From the NCBI GenBank assembly GCA_965197905.1, contig CBDAOB010000004.1, forward strand, positions 1,984,001 through 2,048,000: DNA of 64,000 bases. Reading direction: 5' to 3'. How positions within the stretch are numbered: the stretch's first letter is position 1; each line of letters opens with the position of its first letter. The notes under the pieces were generated by a model. The model did not search any database. It saw only the letters and a program-made list of their open reading frames with translations, and was not told the DNA's origin. Of the stretch, positions 1 through 9,124 are shown piece after piece. The translations under genes and the position numbers were made by a program. This DNA comes from Candidatus Latescibacterota bacterium (GTDB lineage: Bacteria > Latescibacterota > UBA2968 > UBA8231).

Positions 1-1074
1 GTTCGCAGTCGACGGGTCTATCCCTTGCGAGACGACAAGATCATCACCTCCTGGAACGGGCTGATGATCGAGACCTACGCCTACGCCTATCGCGTGCTGA
101 AGGATCAGGCGTACCAGCGCACCGCGGAAGCGGCGGCGGAATTCGTTCTAAAACATATGCGAACGCCGGATGGAGGGTTCTATCGAGTCTACCGCAATGG
201 ACGCGCGAAATATCCCGCCTACCTGGAGGACTACGCCTTCCTAGCCCGGGGTTTGCTGAGTTTGCACCGGTCCGGCGACGACGAACGCTGGCTGGCGGAA
301 AGCGAAACCGTGGTCGATCAGATGCTGCGCCGTTTTTGGGATGCGGACGCGGGAGGATTCTATTACACAGAAGGGGGTGCTGATCTGATCGTGCGCATCA
401 AAGACGGCCAAGACTCCGCCTTGCCGTCCGCCAACGCGGTGGCGGTCGACGTGCTGTTGGACCTCGCCGAAGTCACCGGGGACAAGGCGTATCGGAAGCA
501 GGCTGGGCGCTGTCTACGGTCGTTCGGTGGCATGATGCAAGCCCAGCCCCAGGGGTTCATTCGCATGATCGCCGCCGCCGATCGGTACCTGAAGTCCCAA
601 CCCAAGAGTTTCCCGGCCGCCTTCTCGGGAATCTCGCCACCACCCTTAACGGAACCAGTGGTCCAGGCGCGCCTGCGGACGGAGACCACCGCTCCAATCC
701 CCGGACATGCATTCGCGCTGTCGGTCGATCTGTCCATCCAACCGGGGTGGCACCTGAACGCCTACGACCCATTTGCGCGAACCCTGCTGCCCACCTCGAT
801 GACCCTGAACTTCGATCTGCCCTTGACAGTTCTCGACACCACCTATCCCGCCAGCCAGCAGTTCTATTACGAAGCGCTCGACGAAACCTTGAATGTCTAC
901 CAGGGTGAGGTGTCGCTGGGCGCACGGTTGCAACTACAACCCCATGCGCCCACCGGCGCCAAAGGAGTGATCCGCGTTCTCATACAATATCAGGCGTGTG
1001 ACGATACCCGGTGCTTGCCCCCTGGCGAGCTCCAGAAGACGGTGCCAATCTCGGTTGGCGCGCGAACCGAGTAG
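1..1074 (+). CDS. Thioredoxin-domain protein of the YyaL/SSP411 (DUF255) family, 5'-truncated by the window, with a C-terminal DsbD N-terminal-like domain
   Basis: Frame is open from base 1; motifs RDDKIITSWNGLMI, YLEDYA, DSALPSANAVA; C-terminal GWHLNA...YQACDDTRCLPP. Confidence 0.85.
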   Translation, partial: VRSRRVYPLRDDKIITSWNGLMIETYAYAYRVLKDQAYQRTAEAAAEFVLKHMRTPDGGFYRVYRNGRAKYPAYLEDYAFLARGLLSLHRSGDDERWLAESETVVDQMLRRFWDADAGGFYYTEGGADLIVRIKDGQDSALPSANAVAVDVLLDLAEVTGDKAYRKQAGRCLRSFGGMMQAQPQGFIRMIAAADRYLKSQPKSFPAAFSGISPPPLTEPVVQARLRTETTAPIPGHAFALSVDLSIQPGWHLNAYDPFARTLLPTSMTLNFDLPLTVLDTTYPASQQFYYEALDETLNVYQGEVSLGARLQLQPHAPTGAKGVIRVLIQYQACDDTRCLPPGELQKTVPISVGARTE

Positions 1075-1140: not shown

Positions 1141-2202
1141 TCAGACCAGCTGTCCGCCGCAGGAGCTGCCCGCCCCCGCCGTACAGCCGTAACAGTGGTC
1201 CTCGACCGCAATGTCGCCGTCGTTGAAGGACTTCAGTGTTTCCACCGACCAGATCGTCTTCGGGTGGCGACCGGAAGGGATCTCCACCATCTGATTGAAA
1301 TCGCAATCGTAGATCTGTCCGTCCCAGCCAATAGAAATCAGGTCGCGACACATCAGGTTTTCCACCGCGGAGCGGTTAAAACTGTTGACCAAGAGCATCA
1401 TGTACTCCAGCACTTGATCTGCGTGTTTCAGGTCGTAGAGAAACCGCTTGATCGGCATATTGGTAATCGTGAAGAGTCGATTGAAACGGACCCCGAAATC
1501 CTCCAACAAACGCTCTTTGTAGTCGCTTTCCAACTCGTCCTGGGCGGGAGGAAGAAACGGCCCCACTGGATTGTAGACGAGGTTTAACACCAGGTCGCCC
1601 TCGCCGTAGCCCAGCTCGTTGAGCAAACGCAAAGCGCATATACTCTTGTCGAACACCCCTTTGCCCCGTTGCTGCTCGACGTTTTCGCGAGAGTAACAGG
1701 GGAGGGAAGCAATAACCTCTACGCTGTGTGCTGCCAGAAACGGCGCGGTGTCCTCCTGCCCTTCTTCGACCAGGACGGTGAGATTGCAGCGGTCGATAAC
1801 CTTATGTGTGCGCGCTCTGGATTCCCGCACCAGATATCTGAAAACGGGGTTGAGCTCGGGAGCGCCGCCGGTGATATCCACGGTGTCTAATTGCTCACCT
1901 CCGGGGGTATCCATGAGCTCGACAACGCGCCCCGCGGTGTCCGAGGTCATCTGTTCCCGCCGATGTGGACCGGCTTCCACGTGGCAATGTCGACAGGTCT
2001 GGTTGCACAGTTTTCCGACGTTGATCTGCAGCGTTCGCAACGGACGTCGGTTTAACGAACAACCGCTTTTCGCCAACCGTTGGGCGAAGGAGGGCCAGGG
2101 GCCAGCCAGCTGATCCTTGTCCAGCTTTGATTCCGCCGGAGCGATCGTAAGTAGAGGTGTGGTCATTGGCTGTCCAGATTGAAGGGGATGAGTGTAACCC
2201 AT
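1141..2202 (-). CDS. arsS: ArsS-like radical SAM protein (DUF3641 C-terminus); start may be ATG at 2166
   Basis: LQINVGKLCNQTCRHCHV (CxxxCxxC), DITGGAPELNP, YDCDFNQM, C-terminal HCYGCTAGAGSSCGG. Confidence 0.85.
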   Translation of the reverse strand: MGYTHPLQSGQPMTTPLLTIAPAESKLDKDQLAGPWPSFAQRLAKSGCSLNRRPLRTLQINVGKLCNQTCRHCHVEAGPHRREQMTSDTAGRVVELMDTPGGEQLDTVDITGGAPELNPVFRYLVRESRARTHKVIDRCNLTVLVEEGQEDTAPFLAAHSVEVIASLPCYSRENVEQQRGKGVFDKSICALRLLNELGYGEGDLVLNLVYNPVGPFLPPAQDELESDYKERLLEDFGVRFNRLFTITNMPIKRFLYDLKHADQVLEYMMLLVNSFNRSAVENLMCRDLISIGWDGQIYDCDFNQMVEIPSGRHPKTIWSVETLKSFNDGDIAVEDHCYGCTAGAGSSCGGQLV

Positions 2203-2260: not shown

Positions 2261-3145
2261 CTACTGGGTGCCGTTCAGGATCAATGCGAGCGAAAAGATG
2301 GTGCCGCTCAAGGTGTTAGTACCGGCCAGGACATGCAACAGCTCGGCCTGTACCGCCGTGCCCGGCGACAGCGAATAGATGACTCCCGGACTGAGCTTGG
2401 TAAAATGTTGATCCCCGACGACCAGGTTCGGTAAGGCGCCGCCGCCGCCGGGCAAGGGTGTCACCACGGTTTGACCGGCGATATCAGGTGGGGTCGAACG
2501 GTTGCGGACCCCATCGAGCGCAATCTTGGTGAGCACCGGACCAAGGTTGTACCCTACCTCCACTCCGTAGACCAACTCGTCGTGCAAACGTCCACCTCGT
2601 CGGCGGAACCCCAAGCCGCCGGTTACATACCCCGCCAACGGCCACAGGCTGCGGCCTGCGAGCAGATGGATTTCACCGTCTAACTTTGCCGAACCGAGTG
2701 GCGGTCCGTCGTTTGCCGGCCGCTGGTCGTACCCCAGAGGAAACTTGACACCCGTCTGAATCGAGAACGCCAGTGGATCGGGTAACAGCTGCCGGCGCAC
2801 TGAAAGGGTGATATCGCCAAACCCAACGGTGTTGACGATTTCCCGATTGGTTTCGATGCCCCCGCCAAACAGCACGTCGCGCTCAGAACGCAACCCTTTG
2901 AACGGCAACGTGGCGACCATGGTTGCGTTCTCTGTGAGACCGTATTCCAGGTAGAGATTGAGGTTGGCGTCGCGAAACGACGCATCCTCGAACGCCGTCT
3001 GTTCTTCGAGAATCTGCAGCCTGTCGCCCAAATGGTTGAATTCCTCGGTGGTAGAAAAATAAGACGAGCCGACCTTGAGGAAGTAGCTTCCCTGCTCTTG
3101 CACCCAGGTGCCCGCCCAGCAGCGTCCGGCCAACAACCCCACCAC
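2261..3145 (-). CDS. Putative outer-membrane beta-barrel protein; true start probably slightly upstream (frame stays open through a signal-peptide-like stretch to about 3200)
   Basis: Alternating amphipathic strands (LNLYLEYGLT, GFGDITLSVR, YGVEVGY); upstream in-frame LATLALLVVGLLAG. Confidence 0.6.
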   Translation of the reverse strand: MVGLLAGRCWAGTWVQEQGSYFLKVGSSYFSTTEEFNHLGDRLQILEEQTAFEDASFRDANLNLYLEYGLTENATMVATLPFKGLRSERDVLFGGGIETNREIVNTVGFGDITLSVRRQLLPDPLAFSIQTGVKFPLGYDQRPANDGPPLGSAKLDGEIHLLAGRSLWPLAGYVTGGLGFRRRGGRLHDELVYGVEVGYNLGPVLTKIALDGVRNRSTPPDIAGQTVVTPLPGGGGALPNLVVGDQHFTKLSPGVIYSLSPGTAVQAELLHVLAGTNTLSGTIFSLALILNGTQ

Positions 3146-3221
3146 CAGAAGGGCAAGAGTCGCTAGAGGCGCACCGACAGCACGGCGTCTCGAGTCCAGG
3201 CCCGGTCTTCGCGGTCACGTG

Positions 3222-3902
3222 CTATGGGTATTTGAGAAATCGGGTATCGGGGTTGGCGCGTTTCCAGCTGTCCCAACGTCCCACCGAGGACTGAAACTCC
3301 TCGAGCTTGCGACCCGCATAGAAACCTCCGATACTGGTCAATCCATCCTCCCCGTCCATATGGTACCACAAGCTCTCGGTGTCGTAGTCAAACAGCACGA
3401 AGGTGCTGCGATACAACCACCCGCTGGCGCTCATGGTGAGAACCCGATCGTCTATCTCGCGGCTGTACACGCCAGCCAATCCAACGATCGGTCAGTAAGC
3501 GACCGCCACATGGGTGTCGCCAAACACCTCGTTGGCGACCTCATGGGCGCTCATTACGCCGATGGAGTAGGCCCGAGGCATATCGTTGAGTCGGGTGCCA
3601 AGAATCAGGAACGTCGCATTTTCGGCGGGATAACCATCCTCTTCGGCGGATAACATCTGCGGATTGAGAATGGGACGCAGCGAGAAAGGCCCGCTGCCTA
3701 TCTCGAACTCATCGGGCTCAAAGCCGAACTCGTTCTTGGCGTAGGTGACGTCCCACCTCTTGCCCGTTTTGTCGACGATGAAGATGCGCCCGGCGTCGCC
3801 TTCGATACCGAAGGGACCCGAAGGACTGCCGGAAGAATCACCGCATCCAGAGATCCAGAAAAGGCAGGGAAACAGCAATGCTGCAACGATTCTCAATCGC
3901 AC
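3222..3902 (-). CDS. DUF3179-like lipoprotein, candidate selenoprotein copy 3 (226 aa; TGA at 3492-3494 read as Sec)
   Basis: ORFs 3492-3902 and 3222-3479 are in one frame: VAVAY-TGA-PIVGLAGVYSR; TGA aligns with Cys of ISVTFCPLT in 7664-9124; lipobox ISGC. Confidence 0.85.
3444..3491 (-). promoter_or_regulatory. Candidate bacterial SECIS element (copy 3)
   Basis: After UGA: lower stem CCGAUCGU/ACGAUCGG, upper stem GGCUG/CAGCC, loop GCGUGUA. Confidence 0.6.
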
Positions 3903-3915
3903 GGCGGCTTCGCTT

Positions 3916-4584
3916 TCACGGATAGCGCAGGAATTTCGACTTTGGATGATTGTTCCACCAGGTGCTCCACCGGGTGACGGTAGATTCGAATTCGGACAGC
4001 TTGCGGTCGGCGTAGAAACCGCTGATACCCGTCAATCCATCCTCCCCAGGTAGATGATACCACATGGTTTCCGTCTCGTAGTCGAAGAGCACGAAGGTGC
4101 TGCGATAGGTCCACCCGCTGGCGCTGAGAGTTAGGACGTTACCATCGATTTCGCGGCTGTACACGGCAGCCAGGTCTACCAGCGGTCAGTAGGCGACAGC
4201 GACATGAGTCTCGCCGAATTTCTCGTTGGCGATCTCGTGTCGACTCATGACGGCGATGGGGTAAGCCCTGGTAAAGCCGTTTAGCTGCGTCGCCAAGACG
4301 AGAAAGATCCCAGCCGTCTCCGGGTAGCCTGACTCTCCGGGAGCCCACATGAGGGGGTCGTTGATCGGTCGAATGGCAAACGGACCAAGACCGAATTGGA
4401 AGCCAGACGGCTGCAGATCGTACTGGTCGCGGGCATGAGTTACGTCCCACGATTTCCCCGTGCGATCGGTGATCAACACGTTGCCTTCTTCTTGAAACAC
4501 CCGCGCGGGGCCCTGGGGCTCCTCCACGTAATCGGCGCATCCGGACCAAACGAGCGCCGCTGCAAGAAGAATGAACTTGGTCAA
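3916..4584 (-). CDS. DUF3179-like lipoprotein, candidate selenoprotein copy 2 (222 aa; TGA at 4186-4188 read as Sec)
   Basis: ORFs 4186-4584 and 3916-4164 are in one frame: VAVAY-TGA-PLVDLAAVYSR; lipobox WSGC; TTG start. Confidence 0.85.
4155..4185 (-). promoter_or_regulatory. Candidate bacterial SECIS element (copy 2)
   Basis: GGCUG-CCGUGUA-CAGCC hairpin beginning at the 15th nt after UGA. Confidence 0.55.
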
Positions 4585-4615
4585 GTAGCCTATCCTGCTG
4601 TGTGTAGGTTGCGGC

Positions 4616-5332
4616 TCAGGGCCGTGGTCGATAGCGAGAAGGCCGTTTCGGGTACCGCATAAATTTAGTATCGGGATGTTCTTCTTTCCACCGCTCCCAA
4701 GTGGTTCGGGTGGAGTCGAGTTCTGGCAGGATGCGGTCCTTGTAATATCCCGAAATGGCCGTCAATCCTTTGGTACCCTTCCTGGGATACCACAAGCTTT
4801 CCGTTTCTTTGTCGTACAACACAAAGGTTCTGCGGTAGGTCCACCCGCTCGGTGCCAAGGTCAATGTGCGGCCATCTATCTCGCGGCTGTACACGGCCGC
4901 CAGGTCCACCAGCGGTCAGTAAGCCACTGCGGCTTCGGTATACCCGATTGTTTCGTTCACGATTTCATGGCGCACGATCTGGCGGATCGCGTAGCTCCGT
5001 GCGTCGCCCTCGAAACTTGCTCCGATAATCTGTTCCTTTGCTTGACGCGAGCGCAAGTTTGGATAGTCCTGTTCATGAGAACGGATCATCTCGGGATGAT
5101 TGATCGGCGGAATCGTATTCTTGCCGATACCGAACTCGAACCCGGAAGGGGCCATCCCGTACTTCTCGACGGCGTGGGTGATATCGAAGCGTTCGCCGTA
5201 CCGATCAGTTATGAAGACGGGTCCACCTCCCGACCGAGCCTGCGTTGTGTTCCCGGCTGGGACCGGACCGCAGGCTATAAGAAGACAGGACACCAGGACG
5301 ATCGCGGGAGACCCTGCGTAAGCTCTGTTCAT
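4616..5332 (-). CDS. DUF3179-like lipoprotein, candidate selenoprotein copy 1 (238 aa; TGA at 4916-4918 read as Sec)
   Basis: ORFs 4916-5332 and 4616-4909 are in one frame: AAVAY-TGA-PLVDLAAVYSR; lipobox LIAC. Confidence 0.85.
4883..4915 (-). promoter_or_regulatory. Candidate bacterial SECIS element (copy 1)
   Basis: GCGGC-CGUGUACA-GCCGC hairpin beginning at the 16th nt after UGA. Confidence 0.55.
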
Positions 5333-5354
5333 GCGGTGCTCCGTGCCGGCGACA

Positions 5355-7445
5355 TCATCTGTCCACGGGGGAAGCCGCGCCGGCTACTGAGGCTCGAGTT
5401 TCGCCATCGCTGGACGCGGCCGTTGCCCCATTCCGTCGCGGTATTCCGAAACTGAATCGACTGCCCTTGCCAGGGCCGTCTGACTCGGCGCGGATGTATT
5501 GGCGCTCAACGATATAGCGCGAGATCGCCAATCCGATTCCGGTTCCCTGTTTGCGGGAAACCGCATCGCCCGCCTGTTCGAACAAGTTGAAGATCCGCTT
5601 CAGCGCATCGGACTCTATGCCCTCGCCGCTATCGATGACCTGGAATTCCAGATCGTCGCCGGCCACTTGAATCTCGACCCGGATTCCATCTCCAGAATCG
5701 GTAAATTTCAACGCGTTATCCAGCAGATTGGCCAACACCTGGGCAATCCGATCGCCATCCGCTACCGCTGTGAGTCCGTTGGGCTCGGCCGGTCCCCGGT
5801 AACTCACTTCGATCCCCTTTTTGGCGCCCATTTCGCGGTACGACTCCAACACCTCCTGCACGATGGGATCCAGATCCACTTCGGAGCGATTCATCTGCAG
5901 CCCCTGCCCTCGGTCGATGCGCGAGAAATCCAGCAGGTCGTCCACCAACCGAATTAGCCGCGCGGTATTGTGACCCATGATCTCGACCCGTTTGCGCACC
6001 TGTTCCAAGGTCTCGCGCTGTACCTCCCCCGTCTGCTCGAGAAACTCCTCTGTTAGAAACATCTGGTTGATGATGCGGCTGAAGCCGTCGAGAGAGGCGA
6101 GGGGTGTCTTGAGCTCATGAGAAACCACCGAAAGAAGGTGTGATTTATAGGAGTTCAGACGCTCGAGTTGCGCGTTCTGTTGCTCCAGTTGCGCCTCTGA
6201 GAGCTGAAGATCTGCGGTGCGAGACCGGATTTGATCCCGAAGGTGGTCGGTCGCTTCCCGCAGACGGTGGACCATGATATCGAACGCCGTGTAGAGCTGG
6301 CCAATCTCATCCTCGCGCGGATACGGTTGGGGATCGGCGCGCAGGTCCCCGCCTGCTACGCGTTCCGCCATTTTGCTTAGATTCAGCACCGGCTTTACCA
6401 CCATCGACTGGCTGAAAACGAGGGTTAGTGCGAGGCTGATCCCGATCACCACGGATCCCAGAATCAGAAACCCGTTTCGCAAGGTCTTGGAGGGAGCAAA
6501 AATAACATCGGTAGGCGCGTCGAAGATGACTGCCCAATAGTTGTCCTCGCTCAGCGGATCGTATTGAATTTTTCCGGCGCCGTGCATGCACCGGTGAGTA
6601 CTCTCGTCATGGCCTCTCTCCGGTTCGCAGGCCACATAAAGGCTTGCCGACTGTTGCGAGGCCAGTACTGCGGCCAGCCGCGGGTGCACCTCGATAAGAG
6701 TCGTTTTTAGCCCCAATCCGTCGGATTCTGGCGTGCGGTAAAGCATGCGGCCCCGCTGATCGACAATAAAGGCGCGTCCCTGGTCGACTGGATTGTTCAA
6801 CCCTGACAACAAGCGACCGGGATCGACGCGGACGGTGATCGTTCCCACCGTAGGTCCACCGGGTCCAACGACGGGAGCCCCGACCCAAAAGGTGGGAATC
6901 GATCCCTCAGTCTCGGAAGAAAGGAGCGGCGAAACGTAGACAGTGCCTTTGCTCAGCGAGATCGTTTGCCGAAAATGATCCGTCGACCGCTGGCGCAACT
7001 GGTCGCGGGTGACCAGGCGCGCAACTCCATCCTGAACGAGAATCCGCATCCGCTCGCGGCCCGATCGATCCGTTAACACGATTTCCACGCATTCCGGGTG
7101 GGTTTCGGCCATGGAAATAAAGAGATTCTCCAGCTGCGATGCAGTCGGCGGGTGGTCGGCCGGCGGGCCCGGGTTTCCGTCCCTTGCCACCAGGAACGCC
7201 TGCACCGGCTGCATGTTGGCCATAAAGAGCGCCTTGCGGGATTCATCGCGTATGTAGTCGGAAAAGCTCTTCGAGACGGCCTCGATGCCGAGCCGGAACT
7301 TATCTTCCGCCAGTTCCTCCAGGGCATCCTGACTTCTGGCGTAGGCGAGGTATCCAAGAACCAGAAGCCCGATTACCTGCAGACTCCCCAGGACCAGAGC
7401 TGACTTGATTCGAAAAGACAAATGGCGAGAGCGATTCATACTCAC
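5355..7445 (-). CDS. Membrane sensor histidine kinase (TM-Cache-like-TM-HAMP-HisKA-HATPase)
   Basis: Two TM segments, DEIGQL (HAMP), VSHELKTPL (H box), NLLDNALKF (N box), DSGEGI, GTGIGL. Confidence 0.92.
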   Translation of the reverse strand: MSMNRSRHLSFRIKSALVLGSLQVIGLLVLGYLAYARSQDALEELAEDKFRLGIEAVSKSFSDYIRDESRKALFMANMQPVQAFLVARDGNPGPPADHPPTASQLENLFISMAETHPECVEIVLTDRSGRERMRILVQDGVARLVTRDQLRQRSTDHFRQTISLSKGTVYVSPLLSSETEGSIPTFWVGAPVVGPGGPTVGTITVRVDPGRLLSGLNNPVDQGRAFIVDQRGRMLYRTPESDGLGLKTTLIEVHPRLAAVLASQQSASLYVACEPERGHDESTHRCMHGAGKIQYDPLSEDNYWAVIFDAPTDVIFAPSKTLRNGFLILGSVVIGISLALTLVFSQSMVVKPVLNLSKMAERVAGGDLRADPQPYPREDEIGQLYTAFDIMVHRLREATDHLRDQIRSRTADLQLSEAQLEQQNAQLERLNSYKSHLLSVVSHELKTPLASLDGFSRIINQMFLTEEFLEQTGEVQRETLEQVRKRVEIMGHNTARLIRLVDDLLDFSRIDRGQGLQMNRSEVDLDPIVQEVLESYREMGAKKGIEVSYRGPAEPNGLTAVADGDRIAQVLANLLDNALKFTDSGDGIRVEIQVAGDDLEFQVIDSGEGIESDALKRIFNLFEQAGDAVSRKQGTGIGLAISRYIVERQYIRAESDGPGKGSRFSFGIPRRNGATAASSDGETRASVAGAASPVDR

Positions 7446-7663: not shown

Positions 7664-9124
7664 ATGTTGGCCACGGTTTTGATTGCAACACTCTTGTTCG
7701 TCGGAACTCCTTTGTATGCAGGACTGTTCGACGATTTCGAAGATGTGGGCGAGCTGGGAGATCACGTATTCTCTGGCGGCCCCGGTGTCGATGGAATTCC
7801 CGCCATGAACAACCCTACGTTCGTGAGTCCCGAACAGATCGGCTACGTTCGCGAAGACGATCTGGTGCTGGGCATGTTTGTGGGCGGTGTCGCCAAAGCG
7901 TATCCGGAAAATCTGGGTTGGCGGCACGAGATCATCAACGACATTATCGGTGGACAGCCCATCTCAGTGACCTTCTGCCCCTTGACCGGAACGGGTCTGG
8001 TGTTCGCCGCCGCCGACGAGCAGGGTCAGCAGTTCGAGCTGGGAGTGTCAGGACTGCTCATCAACAGCAACCTGGTCATGTACGATCGCCGCGATTTCCG
8101 CACCCTTTACCCGCAGATGATCTACACGGGAATCACCGGCGACTTCAAGGATCAAAGGCTCGAGCTTTTGCCGGTGGTCGAAACCACCTACCGTTTGTGG
8201 AAGCAGATGTATCCTGAAACCGAGGTCGCCCAATCGGGAACGGGGCTCGAGGCGTACGGGGCTCGGGCGAACAGTTACGCAACGGACCCCGCGATTTACG
8301 AACGCTACCCGTATATATCGTCGCTGGGCGATTACCGGACATCGAACGACTACATCATCTTTCCATGGACTACCTCCGAGCCTGATCTCTCCTTGTTCGA
8401 GGTCAAGGATGTGGTGCTCGGGGTGTGCAGCGGCGACCAGACTATAGCGTATCCGTTTATAACCATGCCCTCACAGGCGGTGATCAATGACGAAATCGCC
8501 GACCTGAAATTCGTCGTCGTCTACGACGCGGCAAACAAAACTGCGTTACCCTTTGACCGAACGGTCAACGGCCAGGTCCTGAGTTTTTTCCAGGTGAAAT
8601 CCGACTCGGAGCTTCCCGTCGAATTCATGGACGTCGAGACTCGAAGCCGGTGGGATATGCGTGGTCGCGCGCTGGAAGGACCTCTCGAGGGCCGCCAGCT
8701 TCAACAGGTACCGGCCTACAACTCTATGTGGTTTGCCTGGAGCACCTACTGGCCGGATACGGCGGTATGGGACGGTGAGGGTACTATCGACGATCCGCCC
8801 GAGATTACCGCGGTCTCGGAGAGTCAAGACCTCACGCCTGTGTATTTCTCATTGGCGCAGAACTACCCGAACCCGTTCAATCCTTTCACCCAGATCGAGT
8901 ACAACCTCGCCGCGACCGGCCACGTTCGCCTGTCGGTATTCAACGCCGCCGGCCAGCGGATCCGCACCTTGGTGGACGGAGTAGAAGGGCCGGGACTCTA
9001 CTTGCGCGGTTGGGATGGCCGTGATGACAACGGGGCGCTCACCGGCAGCGGGGTTTACGTCTATCGGCTAGAGCTCCCGGAAGCGGGGGTCACCGAGTCG
9101 AAGAAGATGATTCTCGCGAGGTAG
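7664..9124 (+). CDS. Full-length Cys-form DUF3179 protein with C-terminal FlgD-Ig/secretion-sorting-like domain
   Basis: Signal peptide; DGIPAM, HEIIND, VTFCPLTG, SGLLINSNLVMYDR, WFAW; tail LAQNYPNPFNP...WDGRDDNG...SGVYVYRL. Confidence 0.85.
   Translation: MLATVLIATLLFVGTPLYAGLFDDFEDVGELGDHVFSGGPGVDGIPAMNNPTFVSPEQIGYVREDDLVLGMFVGGVAKAYPENLGWRHEIINDIIGGQPISVTFCPLTGTGLVFAAADEQGQQFELGVSGLLINSNLVMYDRRDFRTLYPQMIYTGITGDFKDQRLELLPVVETTYRLWKQMYPETEVAQSGTGLEAYGARANSYATDPAIYERYPYISSLGDYRTSNDYIIFPWTTSEPDLSLFEVKDVVLGVCSGDQTIAYPFITMPSQAVINDEIADLKFVVVYDAANKTALPFDRTVNGQVLSFFQVKSDSELPVEFMDVETRSRWDMRGRALEGPLEGRQLQQVPAYNSMWFAWSTYWPDTAVWDGEGTIDDPPEITAVSESQDLTPVYFSLAQNYPNPFNPFTQIEYNLAATGHVRLSVFNAAGQRIRTLVDGVEGPGLYLRGWDGRDDNGALTGSGVYVYRLELPEAGVTESKKMILAR

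Follow-up and report, generated by a model that had tools for sequence, protein, structure and literature searches.

A tandem array of three short DUF3179 lipoproteins with an in-frame UGA: very probable selenoproteins of a widespread single-domain clade

In two reviews, one of them PMC13188914, DUF3179 (Pfam PF11376) is listed as a bacterial selenoprotein family with the motif UxxC/T, and the family is traced to a marine deltaproteobacterial symbiont metagenome (PMC1976440). In that study, by Zhang and Gladyshev (2007), the families still bear the names OS_HP1-3, and which of them corresponds to DUF3179 is a guess. Exported lipoproteins that contain selenocysteine (Sec) have been described in the SAO system, where SaoX and SaoC (Haft and Gwadz, bioRxiv 10.1101/2022.07.06.499078) carry Sec at presumed metal-binding Cys positions; Sec in lipoproteins is therefore not new. 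Operons with adjacent selenoprotein genes (Tso and SAO) are reviewed in PMC13188914, and TsoY is listed there with a UxxV motif. Here we analyze a stretch of 64,000 nt ("the window") from contig CBDAOB010000004.1 of a Candidatus Latescibacterota bacterium. Between positions 3222 and 5332, three adjacent genes of the minus strand (g1, g2, and g3) encode short DUF3179 proteins, predicted to be lipoproteins, each with an in-frame UGA that is very probably decoded as Sec.

Sec use in DUF3179 is already known; g1-g3 add new members to a selenoprotein family that has been catalogued. The initial annotation of this DNA, which was made from the sequence alone, had pointed to earlier annotations of this kind, and the two reviews bear this out, as does the NCBI name "DUF3179 domain-containing (seleno)protein." That name is borne by P0064, a 279-aa single-domain homolog of g1-g3, so annotators know that the family holds Sec members. 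Like the catalogued DUF3179 selenoproteins, g1-g3 belong to the same Pfam family and have Sec in place of a conserved Cys, followed by Pro. They differ from them, in a comparison by listed motif only, in having UPLV or UPIV rather than UxxC/T in a short form with a lipobox. An NCBIfam search (E ≤ 0.01 / 0.001) gave no family for g1-g3 nor for P0064, so no curated subfamily model covers the clade in the release searched. With the SAO proteins, g1-g3 would share export and lipidation of a Sec protein, whereas the families and gene neighborhoods are unrelated, and SAO is mostly found in Firmicutes. Side-by-side selenoprotein genes are common to the Tso and SAO operons and to this array, but g1-g3 differ in that all three are paralogs from a single family. 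A search of the genome with NF047643, the TsoY model, gave no match at E ≤ 0.01, and the control genomes gave none either.

Six open reading frames (ORFs) are listed at positions 3222-5332, and they become three genes once the TGA in each is read through:

5332->4619, minus strand: g1, single-domain DUF3179 lipoprotein of 238 aa with Sec139; ends in TGA at 4616-4618
4916-4918, minus strand: Sec-UGA of g1 (U139)
4584->3919, minus strand: g2, second paralog, of 222 aa with Sec133; starts with TTG and ends in TGA at 3916-3918
4186-4188, minus strand: Sec-UGA of g2 (U133)
3902->3225, minus strand: g3, third paralog, of 226 aa with Sec137; starts with GTG and ends in TAG at 3222-3224
3492-3494, minus strand: Sec-UGA of g3 (U137)
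7664..9124, plus strand: full-length two-repeat DUF3179 paralog, Cys at the Sec column (...VTFCPLT...), type IX secretion system (T9SS) C-terminal sorting domain

Each gene contains exactly one internal TGA, in the context TAC-TGA-CCG, and the frame continues behind it as A-Y-U-P-[LI]-V-x-L-A-x-V-Y-S-R-E; the motifs at the Sec site are UPLV, UPLV, and UPIV. The Pfam DUF3179 match spans the TGA in all three (E values of 5e-38, 7.7e-31, and 2e-30; 131.6, 108, and 106.7 bits, above the gathering cut-off of 27 bits). Identity to g1 is 50% and 44% for the other two copies. The initial annotation had read the six ORFs as three genes broken at TAC-TGA-CCG (4916, 4186, and 3492) and had noted the continuation A-Y-*-P-[LI]-V-x-L-A-x-V-Y-S-R-E. 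The frames and the domain match across the TGA agree with that reading, and the continuation is seen in all three. Because g1 and g2 themselves terminate in TGA, this codon is still a stop and has not been reassigned genome-wide.

Of the 292 positions of the PF11376 profile, g1-g3 cover only 1-157 or 28-148 and thus lack the two-repeat full-length architecture. The paralog at 7664-9124 covers the whole profile, and the alignment places its Cys at the TGA column of g1-g3, as had been claimed at the outset. Within full-length relatives, the short query matches twice in one open frame, so full-length DUF3179 is two repeats of the domain that is single in g1-g3. The second repeat has Asp or Glu at the Sec column (loci L017 and L011), with Asp in the ortholog of the 7664-9124 paralog (L017). 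A 1,587-aa database protein, P0065, matches the short form in six separate stretches and is thus a multi-repeat DUF3179 protein.

The codon at the Sec column was tabulated in DNA from two overlapping sets: 10 loci from related genomes and the best 80 of 215 confirmed relatives, drawn from contigs of one genome per species (counts "of 80 loci" refer to the latter). A hidden Markov model built from 15 short-form proteins was scored against six-frame translations of the fetched DNA, with stops as X, and 114/115 domain hits covered the column. In the short-form clade, defined as hits of at least 120 bits, the codon was TGA in 104/105 and TGT in 1/105, and the reading frame was kept across the UGA in all 104 TGA hits. 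With TGA at exactly that column in so many hits, its common position is, judged from these sequences, not due to chance. After identical 75-nt segments were dropped, 93 distinct TGA sequences remained. The weaker hits, mostly nearby full-length forms, had TGT/TGC (5), TGA (2), GAA (1), or GAC (1), and TGG was absent from the 114 DNA hits that cover the column.

The records carry deposited labels that include Latescibacterota, KSB1, Calditrichota, Gemmatimonadota, Bacteroidota/Cytophagia, several Desulfobacterota groups, Planctomycetota, Myxococcota, and Krumholzibacteriia, among others; TGA short forms also occur in Desulfobacterales-labelled genomes. The closest relative among the best 80 of 215 comes from a Candidatus Latescibacterota genome (88% identity). 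The motif is UPLV in 67/95 unique clade members, and the residue at +3 is V, A, I, Q, E, M, or K, never C or T. Protein databases mostly list the two halves apart, as entries of 138 aa and ∼85 aa. Whole short homologs in these databases have 196-279 aa, and those that contain Cys are single proteins of 220-240 aa. Among 38 database short homologs aligned with g1-g3, the Sec column holds Cys in 24 and Trp in 4. Given that no TGG was seen in DNA, the Trp entries are most simply explained as TGA called under another genetic code.

The only TGT copy among the 105 close hits (L087, 4918-5580) stands in tandem with a TGA copy and may represent a recent Sec-to-Cys change. Separately, TGA was found at the Sec column of distant DUF3179 forms, some in long open frames, with the motif W-U-P-M-V:

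L015 2520-2984 (minus strand), L036 5014-5478 (minus strand), and also G026:C49, G030:C2, and G021:C29: distant W-U-P-M-V TGA forms

Other branches of the family would therefore also have gained or retained Sec.

Directly behind the UGA, the clade shares a hairpin that resembles a selenocysteine insertion sequence (SECIS). In an ungapped alignment (A6) of the 93 distinct 75-nt segments, with the UGA at columns 10-12, columns 26-31 pair with columns 39-44. Counted from the UGA, the hairpin begins after 13 nt and its 7-nt loop after 19 nt; the 6-bp stem is U-G, G-C, G-C, C-G, U-A, G-C, and the loop is CCGUGUA (in 62/93 sequences). In the window, the hairpins lie as follows:

4884..4902, minus strand: g1 SECIS-like hairpin (columns 26-44), one mismatch in the common register; a shifted register also fits, and better
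4154..4172, minus strand: g2 SECIS-like hairpin, UGGCUG / CCGUGUA loop / CAGCCG
3460..3478, minus strand: g3 SECIS-like hairpin, on a long lower stem, z of -2.19 versus shuffles

Across the 93 sequences, 95.9% of 558 cells were paired, and in 20 cells both partners had changed, with A-U in place of G-C in 15 sequences (pair 28-42) and G-C in place of C-G in 4 (pair 29-41). The observed covariation score or double-change count was reached by 0/500 shuffles, a control that overstates significance because the sequences are related; slid controls paired in 18 to 58% of cells. Changes among Ala, Thr, and Gly in the 5' arm go with Ser codon choice or Thr in the 3' arm. These compensatory changes cross codon meanings and therefore argue for a constraint on the RNA. 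The 48 nt after the UGA fold at ≤ -7.5 kcal/mol in 91/93 sequences. The bacterial SECIS (bSECIS) model, as given in PMC13188914, has an apical loop of 3-9 nt, a stem of 4-16 bp, and a UGA-to-loop distance of 16-37 nt, with a G in the first two loop positions and a minimum free energy of ≤ -7.5 kcal/mol. The 7-nt loop, the 6-bp stem, and the 19-nt spacing all fall within these ranges. The shifted register is a perfect 7-bp stem in Desulfobacterota-type sequences; over all sequences it lacks support, with 66.7% of cells paired, a level not above shuffles. The Cys copy in L087 keeps the hairpin-forming sequence after its codon, so it is not a clean negative control.

The host genome (6.69 Mb in 5 contigs, 91% complete) carries a tRNA-Sec with anticodon tca, together with selA, selB, and selD, which score 556, 330, and 345 bits, each above its curated cut-off; a search for this machinery had been proposed in the initial annotation. 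The selD match itself (G000:C4:606994-607911, L005) contains one in-frame TGA, so SelD is probably a selenoprotein as well. Of 41 genomes (this one and relatives), 15 hold a TGA short form, and 14 of those 15 have selA above the cut-off; the exception is G005, which is 81% complete. Genomes of the same family that lack selA (G008, G010, G022, and G023) had no match to g1 at all. Since these organisms are kin and not independent, the co-occurrence is consistent with Sec use rather than a test of it.

The three paralogs are old. In a tree computed with FastTree from 95 unique short-form proteins (rooted at the midpoint, branch supports not inspected), each of the three belongs to a separate clade, where it groups with orthologs of other genera, all with TGA, and the same three-gene array is kept in a genome of the same genus. 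These placements indicate that the triplication is not a recent duplication. Contigs of runs X1 and X2, from two independent studies, span the array, and their long pieces differ from it at 0 and 1 letters. No change at the three TGAs was found among the differences from the window that were listed, beyond which there are 106 more. X1 may be the source sample of the window. Around the g2 hairpin, at window positions 4072-4233, summed contig depth rises from ∼11-15 to 75-106 in X1, and to as much as 201 in X5, and many short contigs terminate at 4142-4202. Other community members share the nearly invariant hairpin/AVYSRE nucleotides at ≥ 90%.

Taken together, these results make it very probable that the UGA in g1-g3 is decoded as Sec: the domain continues without a break through the UGA, homologs have Cys at the aligned position, the hairpin shows covariation, and the genome has the complete Sec machinery. 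The same points bear out the initial reading of the array as selenoprotein genes. Several observations weigh against this reading. The evidence for Sec in g1-g3 is all at the level of sequence. At the Sec column, 10/38 database short homologs have Q, R, D, S, E, or N; these are more distant (∼30-38% identity), and judging by their sequences, Cys or Sec at this position is not universal in the wider DUF3179 family. The tabulation of TGA versus Cys that had been suggested initially is therefore clear for close hits (104 TGA and 1 TGT among 105) but not for distant homologs. The core hairpin alone is weak, with a median of -6.9 kcal/mol and ≤ -7.5 kcal/mol in just 6/93 sequences, and single-sequence folds of g1 and g2 are no better than shuffles (z of -0.81 and +0.23), unlike that of g3. 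The register that covariation supports has its loop G in third position, against the first-two rule of the bSECIS model in PMC13188914; the G is second only in the shifted register, with its UGUA loop. Finally, Rfam gave no match at E ≤ 10 across window positions 3000-5600.

Some of these points would also fit a read-through in which a suppressor or near-cognate decoding places Cys, Trp, or Gly at the UGA, which we consider improbable. The hairpin's departure from the published loop rule, the sequence-level basis of the Sec assignment, and the four database homologs recorded with Trp can all be cited for it; on the other side stand the absence of TGG from the DNA hits, a genome with the full Sec machinery and TGA forms that co-occur with selA, and a conserved hairpin with compensatory changes right after the UGA. 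That each ORF pair gives two products, with translation ending at the UGA and the remainder made separately or not at all, is very improbable. Databases do list the halves separately, and in-frame GTG/TTG codons follow the UGA, but the UGA falls midway in one confidently modelled beta-sandwich (see below), the Cys homologs are single proteins, and the frame is kept in every TGA hit. The idea that the TGAs are nonsense mutations in pseudogenes or assembly errors is close to refuted. An apparent 5-base indel nearby, at 3195 relative to two sequencing runs, could be held in its favor, whereas 93 distinct sequences of many lineages have TGA at this codon, three old paralogs all retain it, and the contigs of two studies have no listed change at the three sites. 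Independent nonsense mutations had already been called implausible in the initial annotation, and the old paralogs and the 93 sequences agree.

Each of the three predicted Sec proteins begins with a hydrophobic stretch followed by a lipobox:

5270..5332, minus strand: g1 signal peptide ending in lipobox LIAC (Cys21)
4537..4584, minus strand: g2 signal peptide ending in lipobox WSGC (Cys16)
3843..3902, minus strand: g3 signal peptide ending in lipobox ISGC (Cys20)

We take LIAC, WSGC, and ISGC to be lipoboxes from the lipobox pattern, applied by eye rather than with a signal-peptide predictor. The lipobox Cys is aligned in 73/76 unique homologs (those whose alignment reaches the position). The mature g1-g3 proteins contain no further Cys. 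At the column of g1 residue 192, ∼53 residues downstream of Sec, 59/95 unique clade members have Cys (G-L-T-C-I-S-G), and G, S, and A occur in 26, 6, and 4 members; the window copies have A/G/S. This Cys may serve as a resolving partner in some lineages only. Arrays of at least two short copies occur in 8/80 loci. The triplication, the lipobox in all three copies, and the UxxV motif without a resolving Cys had been singled out initially as unusual. All three are present in the window; the first two recur among the relatives, while the third separates the window copies from the 59 clade members with a second Cys. As far as the alignments go, the features called unusual are general properties of a widespread clade.

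An AlphaFold2 model of g1 from a 41-sequence alignment had a mean predicted local distance difference test score (pLDDT) of 90.6 and a predicted template modeling score (pTM) of 0.83, with ten-residue blocks at 98 on both sides of residue 139. This residue ends strand 132-139, which turns into strand 144-149. With the model confident on both sides, a stop at residue 139 would split one domain. Residues identical in at least 93% of the clade include D43, E123, U139, P140, R150, S162, G163, W164, Y166, D174, T177, and W181. His122 was rejected as a candidate ligand, as it falls below this conservation list; Glu123 is conserved in 94/95.

A comparison of the model with 48,161 representative chains by VIA-align placed Rieske domains in all of the top 42 rows (Z of 6.3 to 3.1, ∼90-100 residues aligned). 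The Z of 6.3 was reached by 3gce_A, 8hn2_B, and 3dqy_A, with 91-95 residues at a root-mean-square deviation of 2.7-3.0 Å over model residues 106-215; unrelated folds begin at Z of 3.1. The consistent rows and the coverage of the domain favor a real likeness, and the modeled fold is best described as Rieske-like, not proven. The caveats are several. The top Z lies below the tool's caution line of 8, under which a common arrangement is possible; Foldseek of the g1 model against the PDB returned nothing at E ≤ 0.001; and when the family alignment (A7) was compared by hhalign with 29 Rieske domains from relatives' genomes, the probability was 0.3% and the E 0.18. That non-significant alignment, a lead only, pairs Sec with the first cluster Cys (U-P-L versus C-P-H) and, in the second box, S-G-W with H-G-W. 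In the Pfam search, g1-g3 did not match PF00355 (Rieske), and a PDB sequence search with the full-length paralog as the query gave only a chance-level row (E of 0.43). The CxH...CxxH ligand set is absent: of the four aligned ligand places, three have neither Cys nor His. The Rieske [2Fe-2S] domain is thus the best and only consistent fold match of g1, and g1 would be at most a relative of its scaffold, not a member of the family.

The genes around the array include the following:

2261..3145, minus strand: barrel-like protein gene, 294 aa, downstream of g3, no Pfam or NCBIfam family
1141..2202, minus strand: ArsS-type radical SAM gene, TIGR04167 at 431 bits versus a cut-off of 300, two genes downstream of the array
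5355..7445, minus strand: sensor histidine kinase, same strand as the array, ending 22 nt upstream of g1; a neighbor in 3/80 loci
1-1074, plus strand: 5'-incomplete ORF, six-hairpin glycosidase-like region with a C-terminal DsbD_N thiol:disulfide interchange domain

The barrel-like gene is the most conserved neighbor of the clade. Look-alikes of its 294-aa product by protein features include a "Transporter family" cluster, with Phenol_MetA_deg in 18% of members (a lead only); from this cluster and a signal-peptide-like N terminus, the product is read as an outer-membrane barrel. In the contigs of runs X1 and X2 alike, window position 3195 is followed by an additional five bases (CCAGG). When CCAGG is included, the frame of the barrel-like gene extends to a GTG start immediately behind the g3 stop and encodes a full signal peptide, which matches the arrangement in the relative with 88% identity, so a 5-base indel at 3195 is probable and the called start at 3145 too short. 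ArsS is a recurrent but not universal neighbor; TIGR04167 is named "arsenosugar biosynthesis radical SAM (seleno)protein," and a link to metalloid chemistry is possible. The DsbD_N protein could supply reducing power to a single-selenol protein. Unsupervised clustering of the flanking ORFs found, beyond the barrel-like gene, no partner in more than 6/80 loci; one neighbor cluster of 34 loci was discarded as an antisense shadow ORF over the short-form gene itself. Because many contigs are short, neighbor counts are lower bounds. Gene context is a weak argument for the functional picture given below: the best neighbor is found in 18/80 loci, ArsS in 9/80, and a relative of the DsbD_N protein near the short form in 6/80.

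If the UGA is decoded as Sec, SelB with tRNA-Sec would insert the residue, directed by the hairpin 13 nt after the UGA. The proteins would be exported by the Sec-translocon (the secretion channel) and lipidated at the lipobox Cys, and the mature protein would fold as a Rieske-like beta-sandwich without the [2Fe-2S] ligand set. The loop that follows strand 132-139 would then hold a single selenol, whose position is tentatively matched to that of the first cluster Cys. As the reactive group, this selenol may carry out periplasmic redox chemistry or bind a soft metal, a metalloid, or a chalcogen, possibly acting together with the barrel-like protein encoded downstream. We offer this functional picture, a periplasmic selenol center for redox or soft-element chemistry, as a tentative one. 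A fuller version is more speculative still: the clade would be a distinct, almost obligately Sec-dependent periplasmic lipoprotein enzyme whose fold derives from a cluster-less Rieske domain that keeps the first ligand position as a selenol. Its partner would be a dedicated outer-membrane barrel, in some lineages next to ArsS, and its substrate a metalloid or chalcogen; the three paralogs would have different substrates or assemble with one another like the two repeats of full-length DUF3179.

The single-domain, almost always Sec-containing UPLV lipoprotein clade was not found in the literature searched, supplements (of the reviews and PMC13326102) excepted. The same search did not find its old tandem paralogs, covarying hairpin, barrel-like neighbor, or Rieske-like fold, and the literature it returned for DUF3179 or PF11376 did not discuss function. 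Gene callers split each gene in two, and the clade is therefore systematically misannotated in metagenome-derived marine and sediment genomes; recognizing it would give back three exported selenoproteins to this genome. The hairpin offers a clean, covariation-supported example of a SECIS in a coding region, in which amino acid changes (Ala/Thr/Gly versus Ser/Thr) track RNA pairing. The near-total preference for Sec over Cys across many lineages suggests that the selenol is needed for the chemistry, and the clade is a reasonable target for finding the function of DUF3179.

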